Virus record (IMG/VR): IMGVR_UViG_2675903413_000006
Coordinates: 1-19,819 of that record
Origin: a virus
Taxonomy: Duplodnaviria > Heunggongvirae > Uroviricota > Caudoviricetes
Length of the DNA: 19,819 nucleotides
Direction: 5' to 3' (one strand)
Positions 1 through 19,657 of this stretch are shown one piece after another. The notes beneath the pieces are model-generated. The model saw only the letters and a list, made by a program, of their open reading frames with translations, had not been told where the DNA came from and searched no databases. A program made the position numbers and the translations under genes. The stretch's first letter is position 1, and each line of letters starts with the position of its first letter.

Positions 1-1872
1 ATGAGGTTTATTGCGAAGATAATAAACGGCAGGAGAAGTGGTCTAGAGATAGGGTTGACTCCCTTTGGTCTTCAGTCCTCTAATCAGATTTATTTTCTGG
101 AAGACGAAGCTCTAGAGTTTAGGCTGGAAGCATCTGTTCCGTTGGATGATGTTTTTTTATGTCTTCATGAAAATGAAATAGGAATAACTTCTAGCAAAGA
201 ATACGATGGCCTATGGATTTACGAATGGAAACCAAAATCTATATATCGATCAACATACGAATGCTTTTTTCATAACTATTATGGTATGGCAGAGCTATCG
301 ATAGTAACGAAAATCGATGGAGTTGGCGAAAGAGTTATTATTGAACAATATTCTCCGGTTGAAGTATTTGCCAAAAAATTGAATGCTGAACGGGCAGAAA
401 AAATGCTCGATTTCTTAGCGTGTCATGATAATGATGCTCTAGCAGCATTTTTTAGAGTAACTCGTATAAATGCAGGATTCAAAGAAGGAGAAAGATCGGT
501 TAGCTTTTTGATTGAACAACTCGAACGAAATGTTTTATTGTTAATGACCGAGATTCCAAATATCTATTCCAGGCCAATCGCAAAACTTACACCAGTGACT
601 AAAGTTGTCGTAGTATCCGAAAACTCTGTTATCGATGACACCACTTTAGCTTGGATTTCAGAAAACTCTGACAACCTTTATCCAGTTAATGATCAGACCC
701 GCGCAATATTGGAACTAGATGGCACATATTATTCATCGGAACGAATATTAGAAAATCATCTAAAAGAGGATTTGAATATTTATGAAAATCAAGTTGTCCA
801 TGGCTTTATAGTATCCCTAATGCGTGCTGCATCGGAGATCTTGAGTCGGCTTGAAGAGTATCCTTCTTCCAGAATTCGTGAACAGTCGAGCATATCCGGG
901 TATATTTCATTTTTTGCACAGCTAAGTAAGTTTGCAAAGGTTGTAAATAAAAATAAAGTTTCACGATGTAAAGAATTGATTATTAATCTACAGCGTTTGA
1001 AACGAACTTTTGATGAGCGGGTTCCTGTAACTAATATTATCATTGGCACTCCGCAATTCACAAGAAAAGCTAGATACAACCTTCATTATCAGAAGGTTTT
1101 TCATAAAATAATTGCTTGGCATAGATTCGGCGCACCTGATTGGAGCGTACAGGAAGAGCTATTTTCGATACAAAGTATCCCAAAACTTTTTGAATACTAC
1201 CTATTATTTTTAATTAAGTATCACTTTGACAACGTACGGTTATTGGGCATGAAGTTTGAGCTAGTGAATGGCCCTGTAATAGAACGGAATAATTTTGAGT
1301 ATGACTGGGGAGGTTTTACTGTACAGCTTATCTATGAGATGAAAATTTGGACTCATGATCATGCAAGCTCTTTTGGGGCTTCCCTAATTAACTCCGAAGG
1401 GTGGACTCTAGACACCGTGAAAGGTAAATTGAAGCCTAGAGGGCAGCAAGGTCCTAATGCTAATCGATCACCAGACATGATAGTTTGCATTTCAACGCCT
1501 ACGGGTGAACAAAGGCAATTAATCCTAGATGCAAAGTATACTACCAGTAAAAAAGCGTTTACACATTACCTCCCCGAACTCACTATGAAATACCTTCATG
1601 GTATACATGAAAAAAATACTGGAAAAAGTTTGTCTTCTGGGCTGATGATTGTAAATCCAAGTGAATCTTGCGAGACTCGTCATTTCCATCATGAGAAATA
1701 TAGTATTTACGGAACAAGACCTATCACACCTGCTTTATTAGTAAGTTCGTTAGCTCCAGGAATGGCGGAAGATAGTGGTTCTGATTTTAGAAATAATTTA
1801 TCCCAATTCCTGACCTTAATGAGAGCCTCTCTTGAAGGTGAGCAACCATGCCATTTAGGAATCGTGGTTTAA
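1..1872 (+). CDS. Hypothetical 623-aa protein with a C-terminal PD-(D/E)xK-like nuclease motif; possible McrC-like or standalone restriction/defence nuclease
   Basis: Long uninterrupted ORF starting at window position 1; visibly AT-rich compared with the adjacent phage genes; C-terminal segment SPDMIVCISTPTGEQRQLILDAKYT fits the PD-x(n)-(D/E)-x-K pattern. The N-terminal ~480 aa are not recognised. Confidence 0.55.
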   Translation: MRFIAKIINGRRSGLEIGLTPFGLQSSNQIYFLEDEALEFRLEASVPLDDVFLCLHENEIGITSSKEYDGLWIYEWKPKSIYRSTYECFFHNYYGMAELSIVTKIDGVGERVIIEQYSPVEVFAKKLNAERAEKMLDFLACHDNDALAAFFRVTRINAGFKEGERSVSFLIEQLERNVLLLMTEIPNIYSRPIAKLTPVTKVVVVSENSVIDDTTLAWISENSDNLYPVNDQTRAILELDGTYYSSERILENHLKEDLNIYENQVVHGFIVSLMRAASEILSRLEEYPSSRIREQSSISGYISFFAQLSKFAKVVNKNKVSRCKELIINLQRLKRTFDERVPVTNIIIGTPQFTRKARYNLHYQKVFHKIIAWHRFGAPDWSVQEELFSIQSIPKLFEYYLLFLIKYHFDNVRLLGMKFELVNGPVIERNNFEYDWGGFTVQLIYEMKIWTHDHASSFGASLINSEGWTLDTVKGKLKPRGQQGPNANRSPDMIVCISTPTGEQRQLILDAKYTTSKKAFTHYLPELTMKYLHGIHEKNTGKSLSSGLMIVNPSESCETRHFHHEKYSIYGTRPITPALLVSSLAPGMAEDSGSDFRNNLSQFLTLMRASLEGEQPCHLGIVV

Positions 1873-2022
1873 GGGCCGATTCACTTTTATTGAATTTTTG
1901 TTACCGATAAAAGCTTGACATTTTAGTATCGAATGACCACCGTTATCATATTTGATTTCGGTGGTTAGCTTTCGACGTTGAAGAACTACTAGAGACTTTT
2001 ATCTAATATTAATGTTAAATTT

Positions 2023-3153
2023 TCACAACGCTACTTTGCTCCATCCCTTGCCTCGATCGTCATGATAACGATCGGTTTGTTGTTGTGTTTTATGACCAAG
2101 TAATTTTTGTGTATTTAAACCCTGTTCTTTATACAAACGTTCTGATAAAGACCTTTGTTCATGAAATGTTGCGGGAGAACCTTCACCCCAGTCAATTCCT
2201 GCTAAATCTCTTGCTTTACTGAAATTCATAGTCAAGGTATTGGCTTTAACCTGTGCGCCGCGTTCAGCCTGTGAAGTAGTACGAAAAAAATGTACAAGGT
2301 ATTGGCTGACCGCATAGTCACGGCAACGGGCTACTACATTGCGCAAACTCCAGTTAATCGCATTGAGGCGCAGGGAAAGCGGGATGGCGATTTTGCTCCC
2401 GGTTTTTTCCTGAATGACATGCAGATGATCATCCCAAATATCGCTAAATTTCATACGTGAAATATCACCTAACCGCTGACCAGTAACCAAGGCTAGCAGC
2501 ATGGCATTTCCCATGTAACGATGGCTGGCATCTGCGATATCGAATATTTTTTTCCATTCTTCGAGGCTCAGCCTTTGTCGGGTAATTTTTCTTCTTGGCT
2601 GTTTAGTAGCTAATGCAGGGTTATAGCCAGGAGGTACTTCTCCGTAGTGCTGCGCCTCTTTGAAAACATCAATCAGGACGGAGCGAACTACTTGTGCCAT
2701 TCTCGGTTGCCCAGCGGCAATATACTCATCAAGTAATTGTGCAATATCCCGGACATCAACAGCTGAAATTAGCTTCAATCCTGCCCGTTCTCTAAGTAAG
2801 GAGACAGGTTTGGCTTTCTGCTTGTAGGTGTTGAGCTTTATATCACCACTTTTCAGCCTGTCATTCTGGATCGCTTGATAGCGATCTAACCAAGTTGACG
2901 TTGTGATTGCTTTCCCTTTGCTGGTTGCGATCCTGTCACTGATGGCCAGAATCTGCCGGGTTCTTTGTTCAGCCAGGCGCGTATTGGCTTCAGTGGCAAT
3001 AGCGATAGCTTCAGTTTCGTTTGTTCCCAAAGCATGGAATTTCCCTGTTATTGGATGCTTATACCGCCAATAGACTTTATTTACCTTTCGGCTATAAAGC
3101 GGATATAAGTTAGGGACTGAAACATTATTCTTACGCGGTCTGGCTGCCATCAC
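2023..3153 (-). CDS. int: Tyrosine recombinase, lambda Int family integrase
   Basis: 376-aa ORF. N-terminal PNLY...ITGK and C-terminal LVTGQR...FHEQRSLSERLY...LLGHK...DRYHDDRGKGWSKV match the lambda Int layout including the catalytic Tyr region. The true start may be the second Met. Confidence 0.9.
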   Translation of the reverse strand: MMAARPRKNNVSVPNLYPLYSRKVNKVYWRYKHPITGKFHALGTNETEAIAIATEANTRLAEQRTRQILAISDRIATSKGKAITTSTWLDRYQAIQNDRLKSGDIKLNTYKQKAKPVSLLRERAGLKLISAVDVRDIAQLLDEYIAAGQPRMAQVVRSVLIDVFKEAQHYGEVPPGYNPALATKQPRRKITRQRLSLEEWKKIFDIADASHRYMGNAMLLALVTGQRLGDISRMKFSDIWDDHLHVIQEKTGSKIAIPLSLRLNAINWSLRNVVARCRDYAVSQYLVHFFRTTSQAERGAQVKANTLTMNFSKARDLAGIDWGEGSPATFHEQRSLSERLYKEQGLNTQKLLGHKTQQQTDRYHDDRGKGWSKVAL

Positions 3154-3376
3154 TCAAAATCCGTTGCAAAAGTAATGAGTCATTTTTCTTAATTACTGGT
3201 GTTACCAGCTCTCCAACTAACTCGGCGTCCTCACGCACTCGCCATAACCGACCTTGTTTCATTGCCGGTGGACAAAACAAATTCTGCTTAGCATAACGAC
3301 GCAACGTGGAAACGCTTGGAGGATTACTTCTGTATTTTTCAGAAGCCCATTCTTCAAGAGTTAACATTTGAAGCAT
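3131..3376 (-). CDS. xis: Excisionase (Xis-like)
   Basis: 81-aa ORF just upstream of int, overlapping its start by 23 nt as lambda xis/int do; MLTLEEWA...RRYAKQNLFCPPAMKQGRLWRV resembles the lambda Xis winged-helix region. Confidence 0.8.
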   Translation of the reverse strand: MLQMLTLEEWASEKYRSNPPSVSTLRRYAKQNLFCPPAMKQGRLWRVREDAELVGELVTPVIKKNDSLLLQRILSDGSQTA

Positions 3377-3450
3377 ATGCGATCACCTTATTACTTCAAT
3401 AACTGTTCAGTCTCTGCATATCGACCCTGCAAGGTCGGTTAGTTTCTCCA

Positions 3451-3586
3451 CAAAACAGAGAAGAACACCTGCGATGACTGCCGCCCCGGATGGATTGGGT
3501 TATGAGCCCGTCGTCCGGTGATGCTCTTCTCTGTTTTGTAAAAAGGACGGTACCAGCCGGAAGCAAGGGTACAAACTGGTACCGTC
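3451..3586. promoter_or_regulatory. GC-rich structured non-coding segment with two long inverted repeats (14 bp arms at 3451-3464/3525-3538; 11 bp arms GACGGTACCAG at 3546-3556/3576-3586); candidate operator cluster or structured RNA
   Basis: Perfect inverted repeats read directly from the sequence. ORFs across this region overlap in several frames with no RBS, so it is treated as non-coding. The GGTACC/GGTACAA motifs resemble the immunity-region operator half-site. Confidence 0.4.
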
Positions 3587-3803
3587 AAGACTACACACAG
3601 CATAAAGTTGTGGTGCCGGGTGCCTCCCGGTGCCTGGCGAAGGTTGCACACCAGACGGGTGGGTATCCACAGAAGGTCGACTGTCAGCCTCAACCTTAAC
3701 CCGCGTGCGCTGAGCCGCATTCACCACAACGCTAAGGATTCTCTCTGGTTGAAAATACTTAGCAGTTATGTGCCTGCTTTTAGCCACATCAGGCGAGGTG
3801 GAC

Positions 3804-3856
3804 CTGGTTATTCCCCAACAACAAGGATTCGGTTAATCTGGTTATCCCCAACAACG
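3804..3856 (+). repeat. Imperfect direct repeat CTGGTTAT(T)CCCCAACAAC, two copies 34 bp apart, just upstream of the 3871 gene
   Basis: Copies at 3804-3823 and 3838-3856, ending 15 nt before the ATG at 3871. Confidence 0.6.
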
Positions 3857-3870
3857 CAAAAGGAAAAGAA

Positions 3871-4305
3871 ATGTCCGGTAATATCTATACGCTGTACAAA
3901 TCCCACTGTGAAAATGTTGGAAAGTATCGGGGCATTGAAATCAGTGGGGTAGTGTCATCAGTCGAAATAAGCAAAGTTGAATCAAGGGCAACATTACTTA
4001 CTCTTCTGGACCTTGTCTTACATGAGCACCGGAAGAAATTCGGCACTCCCTATAATCAGTTGAATGGGAAAAAAGCTCTGGTTCACCTTATTCTGATGAA
4101 GCATCACTGGATGCCAAAACAGATTAATGAGATGAAATTTGATGAACTTCTTCTTTCAATTCAGGATGAACTCACGCTTGATAAAATAAGCGTAACCGCC
4201 CAGAAATTTTTAGATTATCGAGACTGGAGATCACAAATTCATCACTTTGATGATTTTGACGAAAATGAATGGGATCCTAATTTGTCTGCACAATATCTAA
4301 AGTAA
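3871..4305 (+). CDS. Hypothetical phage early-region protein (144 aa)
   Basis: ORF with a purine-rich stretch (aaaaggaaaagaa) before the ATG; no recognisable motif. Confidence 0.5.
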   Translation: MSGNIYTLYKSHCENVGKYRGIEISGVVSSVEISKVESRATLLTLLDLVLHEHRKKFGTPYNQLNGKKALVHLILMKHHWMPKQINEMKFDELLLSIQDELTLDKISVTAQKFLDYRDWRSQIHHFDDFDENEWDPNLSAQYLK

Positions 4306-4483
4306 CATCCTGTGATAAAACCGTGATTTCCTGATCCAGTTTTTTTAAGGAGTCTATTGTTTCCTGTCGATAAGACAGCACTTCACGAAGCTGGTTTATA
4401 GCTGCCAGCTTCTTTGCCATCCACTCGTAAATTTCCTCATTTGTGTATCCGGGCGCGACGATTTTTGGTTCTGTTTTGTGCAT
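4277..4483 (-). CDS. Hypothetical small protein (68 aa), first gene of the leftward early transcript
   Basis: Strong RBS (GGAGG 7 nt upstream of the ATG on the minus strand); sits downstream of the putative OL-like GGTACAT sites. Its 3' end is convergent with the 3871 gene. Confidence 0.5.
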   Translation of the reverse strand: MHKTEPKIVAPGYTNEEIYEWMAKKLAAINQLREVLSYRQETIDSLKKLDQEITVLSQDVTLDIVQTN

Positions 4484-4542
4484 TTCACACCTCCTCAAGT
4501 TATCAGTTACTTGTTGATGGGGACCAGATTGTTAAAGAGCTA

Positions 4543-4566
4543 AGCGTCCTGTAGGGCGCTTTTTTG
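4543..4566 (+). terminator. Rho-independent terminator-like hairpin (7 bp stem with one G-U pair, 4-nt loop) followed by TTTTTG
   Basis: AGCGTCC-tgta-GGGCGCT then a T-run on the plus strand; there is no T-run on the minus-strand side. Confidence 0.5.
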
Positions 4567-4717
4567 TTGCTAACGAATCATCCTGGACTTCATATGCCCC
4601 AGGCGGCTACTTCGTGGGCGTCCTGTCTGTTTGTTGTTTCTCTTTGGTACATTATGTATCTCAAGGGTACATTGTCAAGTATAAAAAAACCTGCCGAAGC
4701 AGGTTCATAAACATTGA

Positions 4718-5392
4718 TTAGGCTTTGATTTTGTATCTTCTTGGTTTTCCTGAGAAAATCACAGTTCCAATTATAGAGCAATTACCGTTGATCTTAATGT
4801 AAGGCTCAGGCCAGTTTGGGTTTAACGCTTTGAGATAACGCTGTGTCCCATCTTCTATCAACCTTTTGAAGGTGGTTTCACCTGTATCGTGCATCAATGC
4901 AATAACGTCGTCACCGTGGCAGGCAGGTACTTCAGGATCGACAAAAATCATGTCTCCCGGGCGGTACTCATCAATCATTGAATCACCTATCACCCGCAAG
5001 ATATAAGTCATTTCCCCACAGGGTACAGGGCAGGGATACGTTTCTGCTGTGCTCAAATCAACCTCAGAATATCCAACTTCTTTCCATGCTCCGGCCTGTA
5101 CCCATGATATGACAGGGACTAATGTGATTTGTTTATTAGTGATTGAAACATCAGGTTTTTTTGTGATGTTCGTTGTCTGGTGTTCTTGATCGAGCCATCC
5201 GACAGGCAGGTCGAAACATTTTTCGATGTGTCGTGCCATGCTGTCACCGATATTTTTAGTAGCACCATCTCCCATAAACCTGCTGGTCTGGGTTGGCTCG
5301 CGATCAATCATAGTGGCAAAGGAAGAATTCCCGCCAACACCATCTCTCAGTTTTCTGGCGTTAGACCGCCGGATGTCATGGATTGTTTTCAT
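4718..5392 (-). CDS. cI: Phage repressor, CI-like, with a C-terminal S24 (LexA-like) autopeptidase domain
   Basis: C-terminal VIGDSM (Ser nucleophile) and TFKRL (Lys) are the S24 Ser/Lys dyad; divergent from a cro-like gene with an operator palindrome between them. Confidence 0.85.
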   Translation of the reverse strand: MKTIHDIRRSNARKLRDGVGGNSSFATMIDREPTQTSRFMGDGATKNIGDSMARHIEKCFDLPVGWLDQEHQTTNITKKPDVSITNKQITLVPVISWVQAGAWKEVGYSEVDLSTAETYPCPVPCGEMTYILRVIGDSMIDEYRPGDMIFVDPEVPACHGDDVIALMHDTGETTFKRLIEDGTQRYLKALNPNWPEPYIKINGNCSIIGTVIFSGKPRRYKIKA

Positions 5393-5407
5393 AACGAAAT
5401 TAAAACC

Positions 5408-5428
5408 CTTGTACCGTTAAGGTACAAG
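5408..5428. promoter_or_regulatory. Operator: perfect palindrome CTTGTACC-gttaa-GGTACAAG in the cI/cro divergent promoter region; a further GGTACA half-site lies at 5471-5476
   Basis: 21-bp perfect dyad 16 nt upstream of the cI start codon and about 55 nt upstream of cro. Confidence 0.7.
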
Positions 5429-5482
5429 TATCTTGAAGGTTCATTTCAATCATGTAATATGTATACCGGAGGTACATATTGT

Positions 5483-5683
5483 ATGAAAGCGTATTGGGAC
5501 TCTTTAACCAAAGAACAGCAGGGCGAGTTGGCCGGAAAAGTTGGCTCAACACCTGGCTACTTACGGCTGGTTTTCAATGGCTATAAAAAAGCCAGTTTTG
5601 TGCTGGCTAAAAAACTTGAGCAATGCACGTCAGGTGCAATTACGAAATCTGACTTAAGACCGGATATCTATCCGAAAGATTAG
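5483..5683 (+). CDS. cro: Cro-like HTH regulator
   Basis: 66-aa product; GGAGG RBS 11 nt upstream; divergent from cI. The 5' part of the longer 5180-5683 ORF overlaps cI antisense and is rejected. Confidence 0.7.
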   Translation: MKAYWDSLTKEQQGELAGKVGSTPGYLRLVFNGYKKASFVLAKKLEQCTSGAITKSDLRPDIYPKD

Positions 5684-5714
5684 CAGAACACTTTCAATTT
5701 TTAACCACAGAACG

Positions 5715-6284
5715 ATGAGGCTAATCGTGGGTAAGCATCACTGGAAAATAGAAAAACAGCCTGAGTGGTACGTGAAAGCTGTCAGAAAAACTATCGCGGC
5801 GTTGCCGGGTGGTTACGCTGAAGCGGCTGACTGGCTCGATGTAACAGAAAACGCTTTATTCAACCGCCTTCGTGCAGATGGCGATCAGATTTTCCCGCTG
5901 GGATGGGCAATGGTTTTACAGCGTGCTGGTGGCACTCACTTCATTGCTGATGCTGTGGCGCAGTCTGCAAATGGCGTCTTTGTGTCTCTTCCTGACGTCG
6001 AGGATGTGGACAACGCCGATATTAACCAGCGTCTGCTGGAAGTCATTGAACAGATCGGCAGTTATTCAAAACAGATTCGTTCAGCAATCGAAGACGGTGT
6101 AGTGGAACCGCATGAGAAGACAGCAATTAACGACGAGCTGTACCTATCAATTTCGAAGCTGCAGGAGCATGCAGCACTTGTCTACAAAATTTTTTGCATT
6201 TCAGAAAGTAATGACGCCCGCGAGTGTGCAGCTCCGGGCGTCGTGGCGTCGATTGCTTCTGGTTGTGGAGAAACTAACGCATGA
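5715..6284 (+). CDS. Phage regulatory protein CII-like (phage 186 CII / CP76 family-like)
   Basis: Sits in the cII position downstream of cro; residue pattern ([27 protein letters not shown]...HFIADAVAQ) parallels 186 CII as recalled from memory. The start may be the GTG at 5727. Confidence 0.5.
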
Positions 6285-6466
6285 ACAGTTTAACAACACA
6301 CTACCGTCGCTCGCAACTGATTGCGCTTCCTGTACCGGGTGGAAAAGCGAAGGTGGAGTATTGCTATGCAGTAAATGTACCAGGTGAACGGTGTTTACAG
6401 AAAAGCAGCAAGCGGGCTGCATCAGGTGAAGAGTGGTATCTGTCAGGGAATTACGTGGGGGCTTAA
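6281..6466 (+). CDS. Hypothetical small protein (61 aa), translationally coupled on both sides
   Basis: ATGA overlap with the upstream stop and TAATG overlap with the downstream start; no recognisable motif. Confidence 0.3.
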
Positions 6467-7119
6467 TGAGTAATAAATATTGCCAAGCGCTGGTGGAACT
6501 GCGGAACAAACCAGCCCATGAACTGAAGGAAGTGGGCGATCAGTGGCGCACGCCGGATAACATTTTCTGGGGAATTAACACCCTGTTTGGTCCGTTTGTT
6601 CTGGATCTGTTTACCGATGGTGATAACGCCAAATGTGCCGCGTATTACACGGCGGAAGACAACGCGCTGGCGCATGACTGGTCAGAACGTCTTGCGGAGC
6701 TTAAAGGTGCTGCCTTTGGTAATCCCCCATATAGCCGCGCCAGTCAGCATGAGGGGCAATACATCACCGGCATGCGTTACATCATGAAGCATGCCAGTGC
6801 CATGCGTGATAAAGGCGGGCGCTATGTTTTCCTGATCAAAGCTGCCACCAGCGAAGTGTGGTGGCCGGAAGATGCAGATCATATTGCTTTTATTCGCGGG
6901 CGTATTGGTTTTGAACTGCCTGCCTGGTTTATCCCGAAGGATGAGAAGCAGGTGCCGACAGACGCTTTCTTCGCTGGTGCTATTGCTGTTTTCGACAAGA
7001 CCTGGAAGGGACCGGCAATCAGCTACATCGGGCGCGATGAACTTGAGGCATGTGGTGAGGCCTTTCTGGCGCAGGTTCGCCAGCAGGCAGAAAAACTGGT
7101 CAGGGAGATGGCGGCATGA
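6466..7119 (+). CDS. Phage N6-adenine DNA methyltransferase (Dam-like)
   Basis: Catalytic NPPY motif (AFGNPPYSR) and typical phage Dam-family context in the nin-like region. Confidence 0.8.
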   Translation: MSNKYCQALVELRNKPAHELKEVGDQWRTPDNIFWGINTLFGPFVLDLFTDGDNAKCAAYYTAEDNALAHDWSERLAELKGAAFGNPPYSRASQHEGQYITGMRYIMKHASAMRDKGGRYVFLIKAATSEVWWPEDADHIAFIRGRIGFELPAWFIPKDEKQVPTDAFFAGAIAVFDKTWKGPAISYIGRDELEACGEAFLAQVRQQAEKLVREMAA

Positions 7120-7442
7120 CGACGTTAACTCAATGCCAGCAGCAGGTGCTGGATATGCTGATTTCTTATCAGAAAGAACGTGGCTTCCCGCCAACCAATC
7201 AGGAGGTGGCAACCATGCTGGGATACCGTTCAGTGAATGCAGCGGTGGAGCATCTTCGCGCACTGGAGAAAAAAGGCGTCATCACGATAAAGCGTGGCGT
7301 GGCCCGGGGCATCACGCTTCATACCGCGGTGAAGGACGACGACAGCGAGGCGGTCGGGATTATCCGCTCACTGCTTGCCGGTGAGGAAAACGCAAGGCTG
7401 CGTGCAACCCACTGGTTACATGAGAGGGGCCTGAAAGTATGA
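7116..7442 (+). CDS. LexA N-terminal DNA-binding-domain protein lacking the S24 peptidase domain
   Basis: 108 aa; MTTLTQCQQQVLDMLISYQKERGFPPTNQEVATMLGYRSVNAAVEHLRALEKKGVITIKRGVARGITL aligns by eye with the E. coli LexA N-terminal domain. No Ser/Lys peptidase region follows. Confidence 0.75.
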   Translation: MTTLTQCQQQVLDMLISYQKERGFPPTNQEVATMLGYRSVNAAVEHLRALEKKGVITIKRGVARGITLHTAVKDDDSEAVGIIRSLLAGEENARLRATHWLHERGLKV

Positions 7443-7834
7443 AGCTGATCCTGCCTTTTCCGCCCAGCGTGAACACGTACTGGCGACACCCCAACAAAGG
7501 GGCGTTTGCTGGTAAGAGCCTGATAAGCGCGGCGGGGCGAAAATTCCAGAGCGCGGCGTGCGCAGCAATAGTTGAGCAGTTACGTCGTCTGCCGAAACCA
7601 ACGTCGGCACCTGCTTCAGTGGAGATCGTGTTGTTTCCTCCGGATAACAGGATCCGCGATCTGGACAACTATAACAAGGCGCTGTTTGACGCCCTGACCC
7701 ACGCGGGGGTGTGGGAAGACGACAGTCAGGTGAAAAGAATGCTGGTGGAGTGGGGACCGGTTATCCCGGAGGGGAAGGTCGAGATCACTATCAGTAAGTA
7801 CGAAAAAGCGAGTTGCAAATTAGCAACTCGGTAA
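7439..7834 (+). CDS. rusA: Holliday junction resolvase RusA
   Basis: 131 aa; LPFPPSVNTYWRH...RDLDNYNKALFDALTHAGVWEDDSQV...VEITI matches the RusA signature. Confidence 0.85.
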   Translation: MKLILPFPPSVNTYWRHPNKGAFAGKSLISAAGRKFQSAACAAIVEQLRRLPKPTSAPASVEIVLFPPDNRIRDLDNYNKALFDALTHAGVWEDDSQVKRMLVEWGPVIPEGKVEITISKYEKASCKLATR

Positions 7835-7879
7835 CGGAATTGAGCAACACCCTAAATTTGGGTATTACCTCGTTAAAGA

Positions 7880-7899
7880 TACTGTATTTATGAACAGTG
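7880..7899. promoter_or_regulatory. LexA (SOS) box TACTGTATTTATGAACAGTG upstream of the KilA-N gene
   Basis: CTGT-N8-ACAG with an AT-rich spacer, matching the enterobacterial LexA consensus; about 100 bp upstream of the ATG at 7997. Confidence 0.7.
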
Positions 7900-7996
7900 T
7901 ATCCTTGATAACTATTAAAAATCGCAGTAAGTTCATCCTGCATCAACGAAAAGGGAGTGCAGTCCCGCTCGTGGATAAAAATTTGTGGAGAAACCA

Positions 7997-8812
7997 ATGA
8001 ATCAGTTGCTTGTAATTGATGGCGTTTCTGTGCGCCAGTACTTCGAATCTAACTACTGTCTTAACGACCTTCAGAAAGCAGCTCTTCTTGCCGCTGGTGA
8101 GAATCGCTCCTCCCGTTCGCTGGAAGTTCACGAGTTTATGCGTCGTCCTGAAACGAAGGCTCTTGTGGAATTATTGGAAGAAGAAACTACGGGAGATTCC
8201 CGTAGTATTCCTGTCATCACCATTCAGGGGCGCAATGGTGGGACGTATGTCTGTAAAGAGCTGGTCTATGCATATGCAATGTGGATCAGCCCGGCATTCA
8301 GCTTAAAAGTGATACGTACTTTTGATGCGCTTCATAATTCATCACCAGAAGAAACCACATCCGACAAAATTAAATCCGGGGTCATTCTGCTTGAATCAGC
8401 AGCAAAGACTCTAAATCTGTCAAACTCCTCGAAACTTGGTGCATACCAGAAATTATCAAAGGTAGCTGGTCTTCCTGAACTTATGCCGATCTATGCCATT
8501 GATGCACCTGCTGATGCGCCAGATGGTTCAAGCCGCCCTACGCTGTCGCTGAGTGCACTGCTGAAACAGTATGGTATCCGCCTTACGGCTAATCAGGCAT
8601 ATCACCAGATGGTGAAGCTGGGGATCGTCGAGCAGCGCGAACGATACAGCCGTACCTCGATTAACAACATCAAAAAATTCTGGTCGCTGACAGCGAAAGG
8701 CTGCATGTTCGGCAAGAACATCACCAGTCCTGCAAATCCGCGCGAGACGCAGCCGCACTTCTTCGAATCCCGATTCCCTGAGCTGTTAAAGCTGCTCAAT
8801 ACCGTTCATTGA
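7997..8812 (+). CDS. KilA-N domain protein, putative SOS-controlled antirepressor
   Basis: N-terminal KilA-N-like segment (GTYVCKELVYAYAMWISPAFSLKVIR); GGAG RBS; LexA box in its promoter region. Confidence 0.7.
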   Translation: MNQLLVIDGVSVRQYFESNYCLNDLQKAALLAAGENRSSRSLEVHEFMRRPETKALVELLEEETTGDSRSIPVITIQGRNGGTYVCKELVYAYAMWISPAFSLKVIRTFDALHNSSPEETTSDKIKSGVILLESAAKTLNLSNSSKLGAYQKLSKVAGLPELMPIYAIDAPADAPDGSSRPTLSLSALLKQYGIRLTANQAYHQMVKLGIVEQRERYSRTSINNIKKFWSLTAKGCMFGKNITSPANPRETQPHFFESRFPELLKLLNTVH

Positions 8813-8813
8813 G

Positions 8814-9809
8814 GTGACCGTGAGAGCACTACTGACCCCTGAAATTGCCCCGCGTATGGGGATCGTATTGTTCAGACCAGGTTCAGAGCTGATGCCCCTG
8901 TTTATGCAGGGGCGTGTCCTGCTGGAGCCTGAGCCGGAACGTTATTCATCTTTCGCCAGTGGTGCCGTTCCGGCGGCATCACAACCGCTGGCGGATGATC
9001 CTGCCGTTCGGGCCGTGTTCCGCAATGAGGCAGTAATCCGTCGTGCTGGTGGAGTGGAATGTCTTGAAAGCTGGTTACTTCGTGAAAAAGGCTGCCAGTG
9101 GCCCCATTCTGACTGGCACAGCGAGAACATGACCACAATGCGACACGCGCCGGGCGCAATCCGTCTGTGCTGGCACTGCGATAACCAGCTGCGCGATCAG
9201 TTCACGGAACGGCTGGAATCAATGGCAACGGATAACTGTGCCCGCTGGGTGTTATCTGTTGTGCGCCGTGATCTCGGTTTTGATGATAGTCACGTTGTAA
9301 CAATGCCGGAACTGTGCTGGTGGCTGGTTCGTAATGACCTGGCTGATGCCTTACCGGAAAGTGCAGCCCGTAAGGCACTGAGATTACCTAAGCCTGTTGT
9401 GCCGTCTGTCACCCGGGAGAGTGACCTTGTTCCTTCGGTTCCTGCCACCAGCATTATCCAGGATAAAGCGAAAAAGGTGCTGGCGCTGAAAGTGGATCCA
9501 GAGTCGCCGGAGTCTTTTATGTTACGCCCAAAACGTCGCCGCTGGGTTAATGAAAAGTACACGCGCTGGGTTAAGACGCAGCCGTGTGCATGTTGTGGAA
9601 AGCCTGCTGATGATCCCCACCACCTGATAGGCCACGGTCAGGGTGGAATGGGTACAAAAGCGCATGATCTCTTTGTGTTGCCTTTGTGCAGAAAGCATCA
9701 CGACGAGCTGCATGCGGATACCGTGGCATTTGAAGAGAAGTATGGCTCCCAGCTGGAGCTGATATTTCGTTTTATCGATCGTGCGCTGGCAATTGGCGTG
9801 CTGGCCTGA
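8814..9809 (+). CDS. DUF968-family phage protein (YdfU-like) with a Cys/His-rich C-terminus
   Basis: GTG start; C-terminal CACCGKPADDPHHL...CRKHHDELH; position immediately upstream of Q as in Qin-type prophages. Confidence 0.65.
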   Translation: MTVRALLTPEIAPRMGIVLFRPGSELMPLFMQGRVLLEPEPERYSSFASGAVPAASQPLADDPAVRAVFRNEAVIRRAGGVECLESWLLREKGCQWPHSDWHSENMTTMRHAPGAIRLCWHCDNQLRDQFTERLESMATDNCARWVLSVVRRDLGFDDSHVVTMPELCWWLVRNDLADALPESAARKALRLPKPVVPSVTRESDLVPSVPATSIIQDKAKKVLALKVDPESPESFMLRPKRRRWVNEKYTRWVKTQPCACCGKPADDPHHLIGHGQGGMGTKAHDLFVLPLCRKHHDELHADTVAFEEKYGSQLELIFRFIDRALAIGVLA

Positions 9810-9826
9810 TTTTGTGGAGAAGGTTG

Positions 9827-10177
9827 ATGCGTGATATGTATGAAGTATTGGACCGCTGGGGAGCATGGGCTGCAGCAGATAACAGTGGTGTGGACTGGCA
9901 GCCTGTTGCTGCAGGGTTTAAAGGTTTACTACCTCATGGAAAGAAAACACGCCAACAATGCGATGATGATGAAGGAATCATGATTGACAGCTGTGTTGCG
10001 CGATTGCGGAAATATAAGCCAGAAGAATATGAACTGATCATTGCTCACTTTGTTATCGGTATTTCACTCCGTTCAATAGCAAAGAAACGGAAATGCTCTG
10101 ACGGGTCAATCAGAAAACAACTTCAAGCAGCAATAGGAGTGATTGAAGGTATTTTGTTGATTATTAAGCCCCTGTAG
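9827..10177 (+). CDS. Late-gene antitermination protein Q (QuuD-like small Q family)
   Basis: MRDMYEVLDRWGAWAA...AAGFKGL...CDDD...CSDGSIRKQLQAAIGVIEGIL matches the QuuD/YbcQ-like pattern; RBS GGAGAAGG. Confidence 0.8.
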   Translation: MRDMYEVLDRWGAWAAADNSGVDWQPVAAGFKGLLPHGKKTRQQCDDDEGIMIDSCVARLRKYKPEEYELIIAHFVIGISLRSIAKKRKCSDGSIRKQLQAAIGVIEGILLIIKPL

Positions 10178-10180
10178 GGC

Positions 10181-10765
10181 TTAATAATTCATATGAATTC
10201 TGTTTCCGAGATAATATAATCCAAAGAAAGTTGATACTAAGAGTTGCCAAACGAGGAAAGTAAATACAACAGTATAAACCATTAAAACAATACTGTTTTG
10301 ATAGACATTGATTAATGGTGAAAATATAGCATTAAGTATTATTATAACAATGCTTAATGCTGTTAAAAAAGAGAATAGCATGCAAAGAAATAATCGTCTG
10401 GTCAGAACCTCCTCTGAATTTACTACTTTTCCATTTTCTTTTGTTACTTTTATTTCAATAGAGGCATTTCTTTCATTGCTAATCAATGGTAAATCAATCT
10501 CAGCTCTATTGAAAGTTGCTATGGCGGCCAGAGCGGCAATATAAAACCCTGGTAGGTTAGAGATAAATGAAACGATTGATTTAATGAAACCATTGTCATC
10601 AAATAAATCTTTGACAGGGATTTTTAATAGAGTGAAAAGTACTGCTGTGATAGAAGTAAGTAGAATTGGTGCTACCCAATCATATGCAGCTTTGCCGCTA
10701 ATACCTTTAATAAAAAGATATCCAAACGGCTTGCCTAGATGAGAGAAAACTGAAAGTATTGGCAT
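10181..10765 (-). CDS. Hypothetical integral membrane protein (194 aa, about four predicted TM helices); second gene of the AT-rich cargo operon
   Basis: Four hydrophobic segments with a ~40-aa hydrophilic loop between the second and third; GAGG RBS 6 nt upstream of the ATG; 7-nt intergenic gap to the upstream gene; AT-rich. Confidence 0.6.
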   Translation of the reverse strand: MPILSVFSHLGKPFGYLFIKGISGKAAYDWVAPILLTSITAVLFTLLKIPVKDLFDDNGFIKSIVSFISNLPGFYIAALAAIATFNRAEIDLPLISNERNASIEIKVTKENGKVVNSEEVLTRRLFLCMLFSFLTALSIVIIILNAIFSPLINVYQNSIVLMVYTVVFTFLVWQLLVSTFFGLYYLGNRIHMNY

Positions 10766-10772
10766 AATAACC

Positions 10773-11795
10773 TCACATCAAATCTATCATTTTCACAACA
10801 AACTCTAGTTCAATTTTAACATATGAATCCTTCAGGCGCGAATTAAAGTTATCGATAATGCTTTTCTTAATAAATGTTTTTTCTAAATTATTAAGATTGA
10901 TGTTTGAGGTTTTGAAATCAACCTGCCTTGGTTTATTTGTTTCAGGATCTTGGAATTTAACCTTTAATTTATCATAACCACCATTCATTTTTTTATTGAA
11001 ATGAGATGCTACATTTTTAATCCATCCAATAACATTGTCACCATGATTTGGAAGTAATTTTAATGTACTTTCAGTCGGAATGTAAGGTGAATTAACATCA
11101 GGAGCATTAATTGTTCCGAATTGATCCTTGACTAATATGACATCTGATAATCCTTTTTGGCTTATTTTATTAAAAAGCTCCTTGTCTAACATTCCTGTAA
11201 ATTCAAATATTGGTTTGTATCGTATTTTTACTTCTTTTTTTGATGTTGCAGAAATAACGTTAGTTGGATGTTTTGCGGTAAATAAGTCTTCATTGTCTTT
11301 CGCCACTTCAAAGAGAATTTTGTCTAAAAAACTATTTAACCGGGCCGTAGATACACCTGGGGTAGATGTACAAATCATATCATAGGTTCTTTTATTTCCA
11401 TTTAATGATATGACAACATAGGTAGAAACTTCATAGCCTTCACCTTGTTCATATTTTGGTTGGATTTCAACGCGTTCATTAGTATTTATATTTTTTACAA
11501 CGGTAGTACTTCCATTTTTATCAACACTATTAATAAGAAGGACAATATGCGTGGGTGAGTTATCTGGAAGTAAAGGATAAAGTTGTACATCTTGGAGAGT
11601 AACTACAATATTCCCAGAATCATATGAATGAACGAGTCCCTTTTGTTTAACAATCAATGGGGCAAGCATGTACATTTCCGGAACAGGACATATACACTGG
11701 GCTTTTACCTCTTGTGTTGCCTTGGTTCTAAACTTTGTGTCAATGGTCAGACTATGATGAGTAACGAGTCTTTCGCTAGCATTTAATTTTGCCAT
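10773..11795 (-). CDS. Hypothetical soluble protein (340 aa); first gene of the AT-rich cargo operon
   Basis: Long AT-rich ORF antisense to the phage late genes; no catalytic motif recognised (no CD-NTase GS...DxD, no YADD, no Walker A, no TIR/SIR2 signature seen). Confidence 0.6.
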   Translation of the reverse strand: MAKLNASERLVTHHSLTIDTKFRTKATQEVKAQCICPVPEMYMLAPLIVKQKGLVHSYDSGNIVVTLQDVQLYPLLPDNSPTHIVLLINSVDKNGSTTVVKNINTNERVEIQPKYEQGEGYEVSTYVVISLNGNKRTYDMICTSTPGVSTARLNSFLDKILFEVAKDNEDLFTAKHPTNVISATSKKEVKIRYKPIFEFTGMLDKELFNKISQKGLSDVILVKDQFGTINAPDVNSPYIPTESTLKLLPNHGDNVIGWIKNVASHFNKKMNGGYDKLKVKFQDPETNKPRQVDFKTSNINLNNLEKTFIKKSIIDNFNSRLKDSYVKIELEFVVKMIDLM

Positions 11796-11906
11796 GAAAT
11801 CATCCGATTATGATTTTTCGATTTATTTGTTAATCTTACAAAAACGCTAACGCGTACGCAAAAATTATTGTATCGTGTTAAGAGTGGTTACTTCGCCACA
11901 CAGCTT

Positions 11907-11935
11907 AAACCCGCCGTCGAGCGGGTTTTGTCGTT
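11907..11935 (+). terminator. tR'-like intrinsic terminator (hairpin AAACCCGC...GCGGGTTT then a T-rich tract) upstream of the lysis cassette
   Basis: GC-rich stem followed by TTTTGTCGTTT, about 150 bp upstream of the holin gene; fits the lambdoid pR'-tR' arrangement. Confidence 0.6.
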
Positions 11936-12080
11936 TCTGGGGCTGGGGATTCGTTGGTCCTGGTCTATTCCGCAGTTATCCATTGGTTCGGCTTCTTTGA
12001 CGTTTCCGCTTCTAATTTGCTGTACATGATGTTCCCTCAATTTGCACCTGCTGTATCAGCGAGGTGAGAGATAACTACAA

Positions 12081-12407
12081 ATGCCTCATAACCCAAATAC
12101 CTGGCTGGAGTTGGTCCAGAGCTGGTGGCGTGGAGACACACCGCTGGGCGCAGTGATTATGTCGATTGTTATGGCTGGTTTACGTATTGCCTATTTTGGC
12201 GGTGGTGGCGGCTGGAAGCGAAAAACACTCGAAATTCTACTCTGTGGCGCTCTGACGCTGACTTTTGCATCCGCTCTTGAGTATGTCGGATGGCCTAAAT
12301 CGCTTTCTGTTGCCATTGGTGGTGGGGTGGGGCTGATCGGTGTCGATGCTATTCGTGGGGCTGCAATGAGAGTAATCGGTAATAAGTTTGGTGGCTCTAA
12401 GGAGTAA
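12081..12407 (+). CDS. Holin (lambda S-like)
   Basis: 108 aa with hydrophobic helices and a charged C-terminus, immediately upstream of the endolysin. Confidence 0.8.
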   Translation: MPHNPNTWLELVQSWWRGDTPLGAVIMSIVMAGLRIAYFGGGGGWKRKTLEILLCGALTLTFASALEYVGWPKSLSVAIGGGVGLIGVDAIRGAAMRVIGNKFGGSKE

Positions 12408-12410
12408 TTT

Positions 12411-12887
12411 ATGCAGGTACTAAATTCCCAGCGTAAAGCTTTCCTCGATATGGTGGCATGGTCAGAAGGAACGGATAACGGGCGACAACCGACACGTAAC
12501 CACGGTTATGATATTATTGTTGGTGGTGAACTATTCACTGATTACTCCGATCACCCTCGCAAACTTGTCACGCTAAACCCCAAACTCAAATCAACAGCTG
12601 CAGGCCGTTATCAACTTCTTTCACGCTGGTGGGATGCTTACCGCAAGCAGCTTGGGCTGAAAGACTTCTCTCCAAAAAGCCAGGATGCTGTGGCATTGCA
12701 GCAGATTAAAGAGCGTGGCGCTTTACCGATGATTGATCGCGGCGATATTCGTCAGGCTATCGATCGTTGCAGCAATATCTGGGCTTCACTGCCGGGCGCT
12801 GGTTACGGTCAATATGAACATAAAATCGGTGACCTGATTGCCCGATTCAAAGAGGCTGGCGGGGTGGTAAATGAAGTTGAGCTATAA
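12411..12887 (+). CDS. Endolysin, lambda R-type lytic transglycosylase
   Basis: Near-identical by recall to lambda R across the protein (QRKAFLDMVAWSEGTDNGRQPTRNHGYDIIVGGELFTDYSDHPRKLVTLNPKLKST...). Confidence 0.9.
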   Translation: MQVLNSQRKAFLDMVAWSEGTDNGRQPTRNHGYDIIVGGELFTDYSDHPRKLVTLNPKLKSTAAGRYQLLSRWWDAYRKQLGLKDFSPKSQDAVALQQIKERGALPMIDRGDIRQAIDRCSNIWASLPGAGYGQYEHKIGDLIARFKEAGGVVNEVEL

Positions 12888-13305
12888 GCTGGTTATCGCA
12901 GCATTCTTCTCTACTGTCATCGGTTCTTTCATCTGGTCTGCTAACCACTACTACAGCAAATATCAGCACGAAAAGAAACGTGCTGATGAGGCTGTACAAA
13001 ATGCTGAATCCGCAACCGCTATTACCAATAATGTCCTGCAATCACTGCAAATCGTCAATACAGTTCTGGAGGCTAACCAGCATGCAAAACAGCAGATCGC
13101 ACTGGAGTCACAGAGAACCCAGGCTGATATCAAAGTGGCTGTTGCGGATGATGATTGTGCTTTACGCCTTGTGCCTGCTGCCGCTGCTGACCGGTTGCGG
13201 AAATACGCGGACAGTTTACGTAACAGTACCTCCAATTCCGCTTCCAGCTACTCTGACTTTGGAAACGCCAGTACCGCACATACCCGATACTCTGACCTAT
13301 GGTGA
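12871..13305 (+). CDS. Rz-like i-spanin
   Basis: N-terminal TM segment followed by a coiled, charged region; start overlaps the R stop. Confidence 0.7.
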   Translation: MKLSYKLVIAAFFSTVIGSFIWSANHYYSKYQHEKKRADEAVQNAESATAITNNVLQSLQIVNTVLEANQHAKQQIALESQRTQADIKVAVADDDCALRLVPAAAADRLRKYADSLRNSTSNSASSYSDFGNASTAHTRYSDLW

Positions 13306-13396
13306 CAGTCTGGAGTTGAATGTGAGTCTGTTGTCAGCGTTGGAACAGTGTAATCTTGATAAAGCGACAATAAAAAATATCGACGCTAACAAATAA
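13148..13396 (+). CDS. Rz1-like o-spanin lipoprotein, embedded in the +1 frame of Rz
   Basis: MMIVLYALCLLPLLTGC signal with lipobox LTGC, then a Pro-rich segment; lies within and extends beyond Rz. Confidence 0.65.
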   Translation: MMIVLYALCLLPLLTGCGNTRTVYVTVPPIPLPATLTLETPVPHIPDTLTYGDSLELNVSLLSALEQCNLDKATIKNIDANK

Positions 13397-13461
13397 AAGG
13401 ACCTGTAATTTCATAGAGATGATTCCATGTTAATATTGCTTCTTTAACTGGAGGCATATTG

Positions 13462-13947
13462 ATGGATTGGAATATGTGGTCTGCTATTGGGGCTTGTGGT
13501 TCGGCTATCGCGTCTTTATGGGCGTTGTGTTATGCACGCAAGGCGTTAAACACATGGAATAGACAAGAGCAATTTAAAGTAAAGTTAGAGTTTAAACGAG
13601 CTTTACTTGAGCTGGAGGATGCCTTTGAGGCAATGCCCGATAATTGGAATTCCACACAATACAGAATAGCTAGAACAAGAGTTGAACAGCAGTATAATGC
13701 TGTTGTTCACCGAGTTGATGATGCAGCACAGCTATATTTTAAGAAAGAAAACCTTAAATCAGCATACCAGAATGCAGTGAGAGCATGGGTTTTATGTGAA
13801 GGGGGGATTAAAGATAAAAGTATACATGCTGAATGGAAACAACTCAGGACTGAATATAGTCAATATATTATGACTGGTGGAAATAAAAAGTGCTACTTAT
13901 CAAAAATAGAAAAAATATATTCTAGAATTGTCGTGTTCATAGATTGA
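13462..13947 (+). CDS. Hypothetical AT-rich moron protein (161 aa) with an N-terminal hydrophobic helix
   Basis: GGAGG RBS 7 nt upstream; AT-rich; followed by a perfect palindrome ATGAGAGAG-acaagta-CTCTCTCAT (13955-13979). Confidence 0.5.
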   Translation: MDWNMWSAIGACGSAIASLWALCYARKALNTWNRQEQFKVKLEFKRALLELEDAFEAMPDNWNSTQYRIARTRVEQQYNAVVHRVDDAAQLYFKKENLKSAYQNAVRAWVLCEGGIKDKSIHAEWKQLRTEYSQYIMTGGNKKCYLSKIEKIYSRIVVFID

Positions 13948-13993
13948 TTTTTATATGAGAGAGACAAGTACTCTCTCATTATGGATATTTTAC

Positions 13994-14344
13994 ATGCCAC
14001 CACGAACCCCAAAAGCCTGCCGCGTTCGCGGCTGCCGCAATACCACTACTGATCCGTCAGGCTATTGCGAAAACCACAAAAGCGAGGGCTGGAAGCAATA
14101 CAAGCCAGGACAATCCCGTCATCAGCGCGGTTATGGTTCGAAATGGGATGCTATCCGTGAACGTGTGCTGAAGCGTGACAAAGGCCTGTGTCAGTTATGT
14201 CTGCGTGCTGGTGTGGTGCGTGAGGCGAAAACCGTTGACCACATCATCCCTAAAGCGCATGGCGGCACAGATGCCGACAGTAATCTGCAGAGCCTGTGCT
14301 GGCCGTGTCATAAGGCGAAGACGGCCCGTGAACGGCTGAAGTGA
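13994..14344 (+). CDS. HNH endonuclease (terminase-associated)
   Basis: CxxC...HK...CxxCH arrangement with DHIIPKAHGG...NLQSLCWPCHKAKT; located immediately upstream of terS. Confidence 0.8.
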   Translation: MPPRTPKACRVRGCRNTTTDPSGYCENHKSEGWKQYKPGQSRHQRGYGSKWDAIRERVLKRDKGLCQLCLRAGVVREAKTVDHIIPKAHGGTDADSNLQSLCWPCHKAKTARERLK

Positions 14345-14469
14345 GAACCAGTTCCCACTGCCAGAGGGGAGGGGCGGGTCAAATCCCTGTGACCTGACGT
14401 CTTCCGGACTGCCCGCCCCATCGTTTTTTTATACCCGCGAAAAATGAAATTTAACCAGGAGTGCCGCAT

Positions 14470-14964
14470 ATGGCTGGAACGGCGGGGCGTTCCGGGCGTC
14501 GCCCCAAGCCAACGGCGCGCAAGGCGCTGGCCGGAAACCCCGGCAAGCGAGCCCTGAATAAAGATGAACCTGTTTTTACGCCCATCAAAGGTGTTGAGCC
14601 ACCGGAGTGGTTCGCAGAAGAAAATCTCCCTCTCGCCACGATCATGTGGCAACTGACAACCAAAGAACTCTGCGGTCAGGGCCTGTTGTGCGTGACTGAC
14701 CTCGCGGTGCTTGAGCGGTGGTGCGTGGCCTATGAGTTCTGGCGACGTGCCGTGAAAAATATTGCCATACAGGGCAACACCATCACCGGTGCAATGGGCG
14801 GCAGGGTCAAAAATCCGGAGCTGACCGCCAAAAAAGAACAGGAGTCCGAGATGAGCAGCACGGGGGCAATGCTCGGACTCGACCCCAGCAGCCGCCAGCG
14901 TCTGATTGGCCTGGCGGGGAAGAAGAAAGCCACTAACCCGTTTCTGAAAATCATCGAATCATGA
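14470..14964 (+). CDS. Terminase small subunit, P27 family
   Basis: [14 protein letters not shown]... N-terminus and size typical of P27-family TerS; AGGAG RBS; ATGA coupling to terL. Confidence 0.75.
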
Positions 14965-15767
14965 GCCGGAAATCTTACCCCAACGTAAATGCTGCAAATC
15001 AGTATGCCCGGGATGTCGTGCGCGGAAAGATTGTTGCCTGCCAGTTTGTGATTCAGGCCTGCCAGCGCCATCTTGATGACCTGATGGCGGAAAAAAGTAA
15101 GTCGTTTCGTTACCGCTTCGACAAGGACCTGGCTGAACGGGCCGCGAAATTTATTCAGCTGTTGCCGCACACCAAGGGGGAGTGGGCATTCAAACGGATG
15201 CCCATCACGCTGGAGCCGTGGCAGCTATTTGTGATCTGCTGTGCGTTTGGCTGGGTCAATAAAGGCACCCGGTTGCGCCGCTTCCGGGAGGTGTACACCG
15301 AAATCCCCCGTAAGAACGGCAAATCAGCAATCTCTGCCGGTGTTGCCCTGTATTGTTTTGCCTGTGATAACGAGTTTGGCGCGGAAGTGTATTCCGGTGC
15401 CACGACAGAGAAACAGGCGTGGGAAGTCTTTCGCCCGGCGCGACTGATGTGTAAACGCACACCCATGCTGACGGAAGCGTTCGGGATTGAGGTTAACGCC
15501 TCAAACATGAACCGTCCGGAGGATGGCGCGCGGTTTGAACCGCTGATCGGCAACCCAGGTGATGGTTCATCACCCCACTGTGCCGTGGTGGATGAATATC
15601 ACGAGCACGCCACCGATGCGCTTTACACCACGATGCTTACCGGGATGGGGGCGCGACGTCAGCCACTGATGTGGGCCATCACCACCGCCGGGTACAACAT
15701 TGAGGGACCGTGCTACGACAAGCGGCGGGAAGTTCTCGAGATGCTCAACGGTTCGGTATGTTTCTGA
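14961..15767 (+). pseudogene. Terminase large subunit, N-terminal ATPase fragment (about 265 aa)
   Basis: Walker A-like PRKNGKS and Walker B-like AVVDEYHE are present; the ORF stops after ~268 codons where full-length TerL is about 550 aa, and the following DNA encodes a tail protein. Confidence 0.8.
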
Positions 15768-15768
15768 T

Positions 15769-19601: not shown

Positions 19602-19613
19602 TCCCGCCGTTAG

Positions 19614-19645: not shown

Positions 19646-19657
19646 ACATATGAAATA

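Follow-up and report, generated by a model that had tools for sequence, protein, structure and literature searches.

Introduction

McrB-like GTPases were divided by Bell, Makarova, Wolf and Koonin (eLife 2024; PMC11090510) according to whether they carry an NxD or an NxxD motif, and the largest NxD clade, in which long coiled coils are fused to the GTPase, was named CoCoNuT. Systems of Types I-A and I-C consist of CnuB and CnuC only, the Type I-C layout being CSD-YTH-CoCo-McrB together with IG-McrC_N-PD-DxK. The same study likened the immunoglobulin (Ig) domain found at the N-terminus of CnuC in Types I-B and I-C to RhoGDI, described DUF2357 as the McrB-interacting module of McrC, noted methyltransferase associations for many NxD GTPases, and predicted RNA targeting for CoCoNuTs; it does not discuss carriage by prophages or satellites, and the word 'prophage' is absent from it. 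A seven-gene type II CoCoNuT reportedly protected P. aeruginosa from PP7 and LeviOr01, both RNA phages, and from one DNA phage (preprint 10.64898/2026.04.06.716636). Here we analyze a stretch of 19,819 nucleotides from a tailed virus, positions 1 to 19,819 of IMG/VR record IMGVR_UViG_2675903413_000006 (hereafter the window), the first gene of which encodes an McrC-like nuclease subunit. An earlier reading of its letters (the original prediction) had pointed to a nuclease next to a prophage integrase gene. Together with an upstream gene that lies outside the window, this gene forms a two-gene cassette that is probably a CoCoNuT of Type I-C architecture, carried as cargo by an e14-like prophage.

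Results

The window begins with an McrC-like nuclease gene

The gene and the parts of its product are as follows.

1..1872, plus strand: complete gene for an McrC-like (CnuC-like) nuclease subunit, an open reading frame (ORF) of 623 amino acids with its ATG at position 1
1..375, plus strand: N-terminal Ig-like beta-sandwich, approximately residues 1-125 (AlphaFold2 (AF2) model and Foldseek)
376..1233, plus strand: DUF2357, the McrC N-terminal helical bundle, approximately residues 126-411, with a long helical hairpin and a beta insertion
1288..1833, plus strand: C-terminal PD-(D/E)xK nuclease domain, approximately residues 430-611
1471..1536, plus strand: catalytic motif P491-D492 ... D510-A511-K512, invariant in 46 of 46 homologues

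A coding sequence 100% identical to 1..1872 is annotated in NZ_CP122454.1, the genome of E. coli strain 82.0311, and the RefSeq counterpart of its product is WP_053270794.1, labelled 'DUF2357 domain-containing protein'. As the original prediction had it, this is a large, AT-rich gene of distinct composition beside int: its 623-residue ORF, convergent with intE, has a guanine-plus-cytosine (GC) content of 37.6%, versus 48.7% in the remaining window and 50.4% in the neighboring host gene icd, and its GC content at third codon positions is 0.31.

The C-terminal PD-(D/E)xK motif that had been proposed from the letters stood up to comparison with relatives. Residues 490-514 are the segment quoted in that proposal (SPDMIVCISTPTGEQRQLILDAKYT), and within it P491, D492, D510, A511 and K512 do not vary among 46 aligned homologues with identity down to 26%. 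Because it is invariant over this distance, the PD...DxK motif is no chance match; it is also intact in six independent loci. When the family profile was aligned with K-12 McrC (hhalign), D510-A-K512 fell exactly on D257-A-K259, the catalytic residues of McrC. In the AF2 model of the subunit (mean predicted local distance difference test score, pLDDT, 85.4; predicted template modeling score 0.74) the C-terminal domain is alpha/beta, with the PD and DxK residues on successive strands and a helix after them.

The N-terminal region of about 480 residues had been described as unrecognized, a description that no longer holds. Residues 90-292 are recognized by the Pfam family DUF2357 (PF09823, the N-terminal domain of McrC) with E=2.2e-9 and 37.4 bits, above its cut-off of 23.3, and 33 of the 46 homologues match this family. 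In the AF2 model this region contains a hairpin of two helices, H261-285 and H304-340, with a beta insertion at residues 195-257, whereas residues 1-125 are modeled as all-beta, from strand E2-7 to strand E120-125. Foldseek compares this Ig-like domain with the Ig domains of KIR and with RhoGDI (1ajw, probability 0.90; 5fr1_B, 0.69). For the whole subunit the top match is YdjA (9a5m_A, E=2.8e-7), which in BsuMI of B. subtilis is the McrC-like subunit, and the predicted overall fold is similar to that of solved McrC. A CxxC motif is absent.

Proteins of this kind are widespread. A word-indexed search recovered 120 homologue clusters, nearly all of 590-645 amino acids, from Enterobacterales, Aeromonas, Pseudomonas, Vibrio and Acinetobacter, and in an exhaustive profile search the number of cluster representatives was 1,026 at E<=1e-3, 766 at E<=1e-10 and 244 at E<=1e-30.

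An McrB-like partner is encoded 9 bp upstream

The original prediction had made the assignment of the protein as an McrC-like subunit conditional on an adjoining nucleoside triphosphatase (NTPase) gene, and examination of the DNA upstream of the window bore this out. In the parent genome the nuclease ATG lies 9 bp past the stop codon with which the upstream gene ends and is preceded at 5 nt by an AAGGTG ribosome-binding site. The product of that upstream (partner) gene, 848 amino acids long and annotated in 82.0311 as 'hypothetical protein', carries a Walker A motif GPPGTGKT (residues 538-545), a Walker B motif LLDE (621-624), the sequence T-I-N675-N-D677, and R690. In alignments of 16 and of 40 sequences, the Walker A (G538-K544) and Walker B (D623-E624) residues, N675-x-D677 and R690 are all invariant.

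Comparison of the partner family with K-12 McrB by hhalign gave 94% probability and E=1.2e-7, the match covering the entire GTPase domain. In this alignment NND of the partner stands opposite NTAD of McrB, with its Asp one residue earlier; the partner signature is therefore one residue shorter, NxD versus NxxD. All matches to AAA families in Pfam, AAA_5 among them, were sub-threshold, and a search of PADLOC returned the candidate PDC-M26A at 1.3e-16; we found no literature on 'PDC-M26'.

The AF2 model of the partner (pLDDT 77) predicts a beta-rich N-terminal module in two parts (residues 1-210), helices, a helical hairpin, and an AAA+ domain at 494-848. The hairpin is modeled as two helices of ~77 residues each, 289-365 and 371-450 (~160 residues), plus flanking helices, and residues 236-470 are rich in E, L, K and Q and contain a single proline.

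An AT-rich leader of ~370 bp precedes the start codon of the partner (9070-9444 of L001, DNA of strain 82.0311) and follows the icd terminator at 9047-9069. Scanned for promoters and terminators, the cassette yielded no signal exceeding shuffle expectation, and the sole clear terminator is that of icd.

The pair fits the Type I-C CoCoNuT architecture

Based on motif, profile and layout, we consider it likely that the pair belongs to the McrBC class and, within it, to the NxD/coiled-coil CoCoNuT branch, with the architecture of Type I-C. Two CnuB fragments published for Type I-A scored 91.7 and 63.1 bits with the partner family profile, versus 12.3 bits for K-12 McrB, and a BLASTP comparison of the partner with Rhizobium CnuB (E=1e-11) agreed with these scores. 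Canonical McrBC of the NxxD branch was set aside on the NxD motif, which is invariant in 40 partner sequences. Type I-B was likewise rejected, the coiled coil being fused to the partner and CnuA being absent. Walker B and the NxD motif are separated by 53 residues in the partner and by 55 in K-12 McrB, whereas the distance is 85 in one Type I-A CnuB and 124 in another. With no helical insert at this place, and with no CxxC motif and no zinc ribbon in the nuclease subunit, the pair is not of Type I-A.

Several results weigh against this assignment. On the nuclease side, the hhalign match to K-12 McrC is weak (probability 10%, E=0.003), searches of PDB sequences with phmmer and with the family profile (hmmsearch) found no solved relative, and comparison of the protein with PADLOC and NCBIfam gave zero matches. 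The Pfam check suggested by the original prediction was borne out for DUF2357 and fell just short for the nuclease domain, PDDEXK_7 (PF04411) reaching 19.2 bits over residues 482-516, slightly below its cut-off of 22.1; 31 of the 46 homologues match this family at E<=0.01, the best at 3.5e-6. On the partner side, hydrophobicity at heptad positions a and d was 0.596, versus 0.548±0.025 in shuffled sequence, ~1.9 standard deviations by a simple test. Neither a Pfam scan of 14 members, nor a profile search of PDB sequences, nor an hhalign comparison with CspA supported a CSD- or YTH-like identity of the N-terminal module, and a consensus sigma-70 scan recognized no promoter upstream of the partner. 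Foldseek ranked NorQ/MoxR, MCM and Lon above McrB (6hz4_E, rank 21) for the partner model, with BrxL and dynein also among the generic AAA+ matches; since the matches are generic and McrB stands just at rank 21, Foldseek is non-discriminating for this protein, though it does confirm an AAA+ fold of the MoxR/NorQ-MCM-dynein-McrB kind for the model. A phmmer search of PDB sequences with the partner returned P-loop matches only. Finally, the literature searched contained no experiment on this system or on any Type I CoCoNuT.

The cassette occupies a variable slot of an e14-like prophage

Three features beyond the nuclease gene define the end of the cassette and its place in the prophage.

1873..2022, no strand: spacer of 150 bp between the nuclease gene and the convergent intE, the end of the cargo cassette (from the sequence)
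2023-3153, minus strand: intE (ORF and RefSeq annotation; order as in K-12 e14)
3131-3376, minus strand: xisE (ORF and RefSeq annotation; order as in K-12 e14)

A scan for intrinsic terminators in the spacer (1873..2022) found none that was convincing. Just past xisE, a ymfH-like hypothetical gene (window 3407-3727, minus strand), a RefSeq pseudogene, is frameshifted, as is the same gene in two other e14-like prophages.

In strain 82.0311 the gene order is icd, the 848-residue partner gene, the DUF2357 gene, intE, xisE and a full e14-like/lambdoid prophage set. The final ~165 bp of icd are duplicated ~38 kb downstream as a pseudogene fragment (icdC, attR), which is the classical attL/attR arrangement of e14. 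The original prediction had placed the nuclease gene just outside the prophage. Because the 3' end of icd is duplicated ~38 kb downstream, the cassette instead lies inside it, between attL, within icd, and intE, and the intE and xisE genes of the e14-like prophage (2023..3376) fix its position between attL and int.

The same slot holds other genes in other strains. In the e14 element of K-12 it is occupied by ymfD, ymfE and lit, and the e14-like prophage of strain 1297KP likewise carries ymfD-ymfE-lit. In strain PS1Thumoskin9 the icd-intE slot contains genes for a 445-residue HEPN/Toprim-associated protein and a 309-residue hypothetical protein, neither of which has a PADLOC match. Because its gene content differs from strain to strain, the interval between attL and int is a variable cargo position. 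Among 5,426 complete E. coli genomes, the cassette itself was found in 3 and a related intE in 501.

The window is a deleted variant of the e14-like prophage of 82.0311 in which the cassette is retained: it is identical to the 82.0311 sequence (L001/L002) through position 6387, lacks ~1.6 kb from 6388, and lacks ~11.6 kb of head and tail genes from ~15755. A second IMG/VR viral contig (L013, IMGVR_UViG_2897375277_000008), to which the window DNA is not base-for-base identical, carries the nuclease gene with 100% protein identity and has its edge exactly at the ATG. Because this contig and the window both end at that ATG, the automated prophage boundary splits the operon, and the gene for the NTPase partner falls beyond it.

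Another module of two genes, likewise AT-rich (~32% GC) and encoding proteins of 194 and 340 amino acids, lies at window 10181-11795 (minus strand), between the gene for antiterminator Q (9812-10177) and that for a holin (12081-12407). Pfam recognized neither protein. The module matches the PADLOC candidate PDC-M53 over its full length (PDC-M53B, E=2e-54; PDC-M53A, E=2e-32), and because it is present besides the cassette, the prophage carries two separate candidate defense cargoes.

The gene pair recurs on mobile elements

The order of the pair is constant and all motifs are intact at six loci, which come from viral contigs and from E. coli, Vibrio and Acinetobacter and reach down to 33% identity; the partner has 833-859 amino acids, the gap measures 8-50 bp and the nuclease has 610-623 amino acids. 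An E. coli island between der and xseA carries the pair, its partner 48% identical, with an integrase, AlpA and Rep, while in a Vibrio island the pair is accompanied by Prim-Pol, AlpA and an integrase. In Acinetobacter it adjoins a PLD nuclease and a kinase-helicase. On a 54-kb viral contig (L014, 8350-13233) an 80%-identical cassette is located downstream of DUF968 and antiterminator Q, as lambdoid prophage cargo. Behind it come an N6_N4 DNA methylase gene and an AAA ATPase and subtilase (S8) pair, so that cargo genes seem to be stacked in a cluster here. IMG/VR contigs of ~14 kb (L015/L016) carry a 41%-identical pair in a P4-like satellite, between the integrase and Ash plus a primase-helicase. 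Because of this satellite copy, the same putative defense pair is exchanged between prophages and satellites.

Relatives of the two genes are also found on plasmids, and the longest contig was of equal size in ~30 nuclease clusters and partner clusters. A tblastn search of 50,697 deposited phage genomes gave no match. What the analysis shows is the domain architecture, the conserved catalytic and NTPase residues, the conserved pairing of the genes and their location on mobile elements.

Discussion

How the pair may work

In the most likely mechanism, modeled on McrBC complexes of known structure, the partner would form a hexameric ring, into which the DUF2357 helical stalk of the nuclease subunit would enter and stimulate NTP hydrolysis; the conserved tip of the hairpin, G300-Y301-x-S303, may be the inserting element. 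The N-terminal module of the partner is the presumed target sensor and would recognize a feature of the invading nucleic acid, and the C-terminal PD-DxK site (D492, D510 and K512) would then cut the recognized target. Complex formation, NTP dependence, the nature of the target and a defense phenotype are all inferred. We favor DNA as the target because the PD-DxK site is intact. As AT-rich cargo, the cassette most likely shields the lysogen, and hence the prophage, from other phages.

Alternative explanations

The same two-protein machine might be directed at RNA (tRNA, tmRNA, rRNA or phage transcripts), sensed through an OB/YTH-like module and leading to abortive infection or dormancy, a reading that we regard as rather unlikely. 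The cassette does occupy the slot of Lit, an abortive-infection effector that cleaves EF-Tu, and the N-terminal ~210 residues of the partner are predicted to be beta-rich, with a strand-helix order in the first subdomain that is compatible with an OB fold; the identity of this module as CSD or YTH is, however, unsupported at the level of sequence. The class with NxD, coiled coil and Ig-McrC_N-PD-DxK is one for which RNA targeting has been predicted (PMC11090510), and a type II CoCoNuT reportedly protects against PP7 and LeviOr01, which are RNA phages, but that evidence comes from a seven-gene system with other effectors. The sole nuclease of the present pair is an intact PD-DxK enzyme, a fold of which most characterized members cut DNA, and HEPN or any other RNase is absent from the two-gene system. 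On the DNA side, the pair would be the restriction half of a methyltransferase-linked restriction-modification system of the LlaJI/BsuMI type, dependent on cognate host methylation, if weight were given to YdjA as the top Foldseek match, to the N6_N4 methylase gene that follows the 80%-identical copy, to the N6-adenine methyltransferase ~6 kb away in the prophage, and to the association of many NxD GTPases with methyltransferases (PMC11090510). We think this very unlikely: no methyltransferase adjoins the pair at the window locus or at loci L003, L006, L007 and L015, and the Dam-like methylase of the prophage is also present in e14-like prophages with other cargo. Because it is kept in relatives carrying other cargo, the latter is not part of the system, and with no conserved methylase the candidate was rejected.

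The pair might also serve its mobile element in some way other than defense, by degrading host or competitor DNA, by aiding induction or packaging, or as an addiction module. It is always found on or beside mobile elements, and no phenotype is known for it; yet most related e14-like prophages do without the cassette (3 genomes with it versus 501 with intE), and it was not found in the 50,697 deposited phage genomes. Because it is missing from most e14-like prophages and was not found in deposited phage genomes, the phage life cycle can do without the cassette. The pair is also swapped with known or candidate defense genes in the same slot and neighbors defense-type genes in a non-phage setting, the Acinetobacter locus, and a role outside defense seems highly improbable to us. 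The fallback of the original prediction, a standalone PD-(D/E)xK nuclease without an NTPase partner, retains a negligible probability. Although the window alone reveals no partner, an McrB-like one is encoded 9 bp upstream and at every related locus examined, and the DUF2357 region of the nuclease is itself the McrB-interacting module of McrC.

Significance

CoCoNuTs are a large branch of McrBC systems whose two-gene Type I members are known from sequence analysis only. A compact E. coli pair makes the role of the NxD motif in nucleotide use, the purpose of the coiled coil and the choice between DNA and RNA as target directly testable. It resides, moreover, on a well-studied prophage family, in a slot known for the Lit abortive-infection gene. 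A bolder possibility, which we consider doubtful, is that of a minimal two-gene prophage CoCoNuT in which an RNA or modified-nucleic-acid signal would be read by a divergent OB/YTH-like module and an NxD-type AAA+ motor with a coiled-coil arm would drive the PD-DxK nuclease, resulting in abortive infection or RNA-directed restriction, and which prophages and satellites would trade in the Lit slot. In that case the cassette would provide E. coli with a first tractable model of the uncharacterized NxD/coiled-coil branch of McrBC. The locus also illustrates that automated prophage boundaries can split defense operons and, with the icd-intE slot of e14-like prophages, lengthens the list of variable hotspots for defense cargo.

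Comparison with known systems

With Lit of the cryptic K-12 prophage e14, the cassette shares the icd/attL-intE cargo slot and, presumably, the protection of the lysogen, but Lit is a single-gene peptidase, unrelated in protein and mechanism to a two-gene NTPase-nuclease. BsuMI YdiS-YdjA and LlaJI R1-R2 are pairs of an AAA+ protein and an McrC-like protein, and YdjA is the top Foldseek match of the nuclease subunit; those systems have cognate methyltransferases, whereas none is consistently linked to the cassette.

K-12 McrBC, a type IV system dependent on 5-methylcytosine and GTP, resembles the cassette in having an AAA+ NTPase gene followed by a gene for a DUF2357 and PD-DxK protein, and the nuclease subunit finds its best structural counterpart in McrC. 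It differs in the NxxD motif, where the partner has NxD and a coiled coil of ~160 residues besides, and in the DUF3578/ADAM methylcytosine reader of McrB, to which the N-terminal module of the partner is unrelated. K-12 McrC has 348 residues, versus 623 in the nuclease subunit with its extra Ig-like domain and longer stalk. Sequence similarity between the pair and the K-12 system is marginal, at 12 bits with the NTPase profile and E=0.003 in the nuclease comparison.

Within the CoCoNuTs, Type I-A has closely similar NxD NTPase motifs (...NWxGxEDLLGYxN..., LDEMNLxxVExYF and NxD-xTT...LSPKxxDR) and is set apart by the helical insert of its CnuB and by the coiled-coil/CSD inserts and zinc ribbon of its CnuC. 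The closest resemblance is to Type I-C. Although the CSD and YTH-like domains of Type I-C CnuB are so far not confirmed in the partner, both are two-gene operons with the NTPase gene first and no CnuA; in both, N-terminal domains and a long coiled coil are fused to an NxD McrB-like NTPase, and the nuclease subunit combines a RhoGDI-like Ig domain, DUF2357 and an intact PD-DxK site; and both have gammaproteobacterial hosts and lack a zinc ribbon as well as an insert between Walker B and NxD. The cassette is a further member of a known, computationally defined kind.

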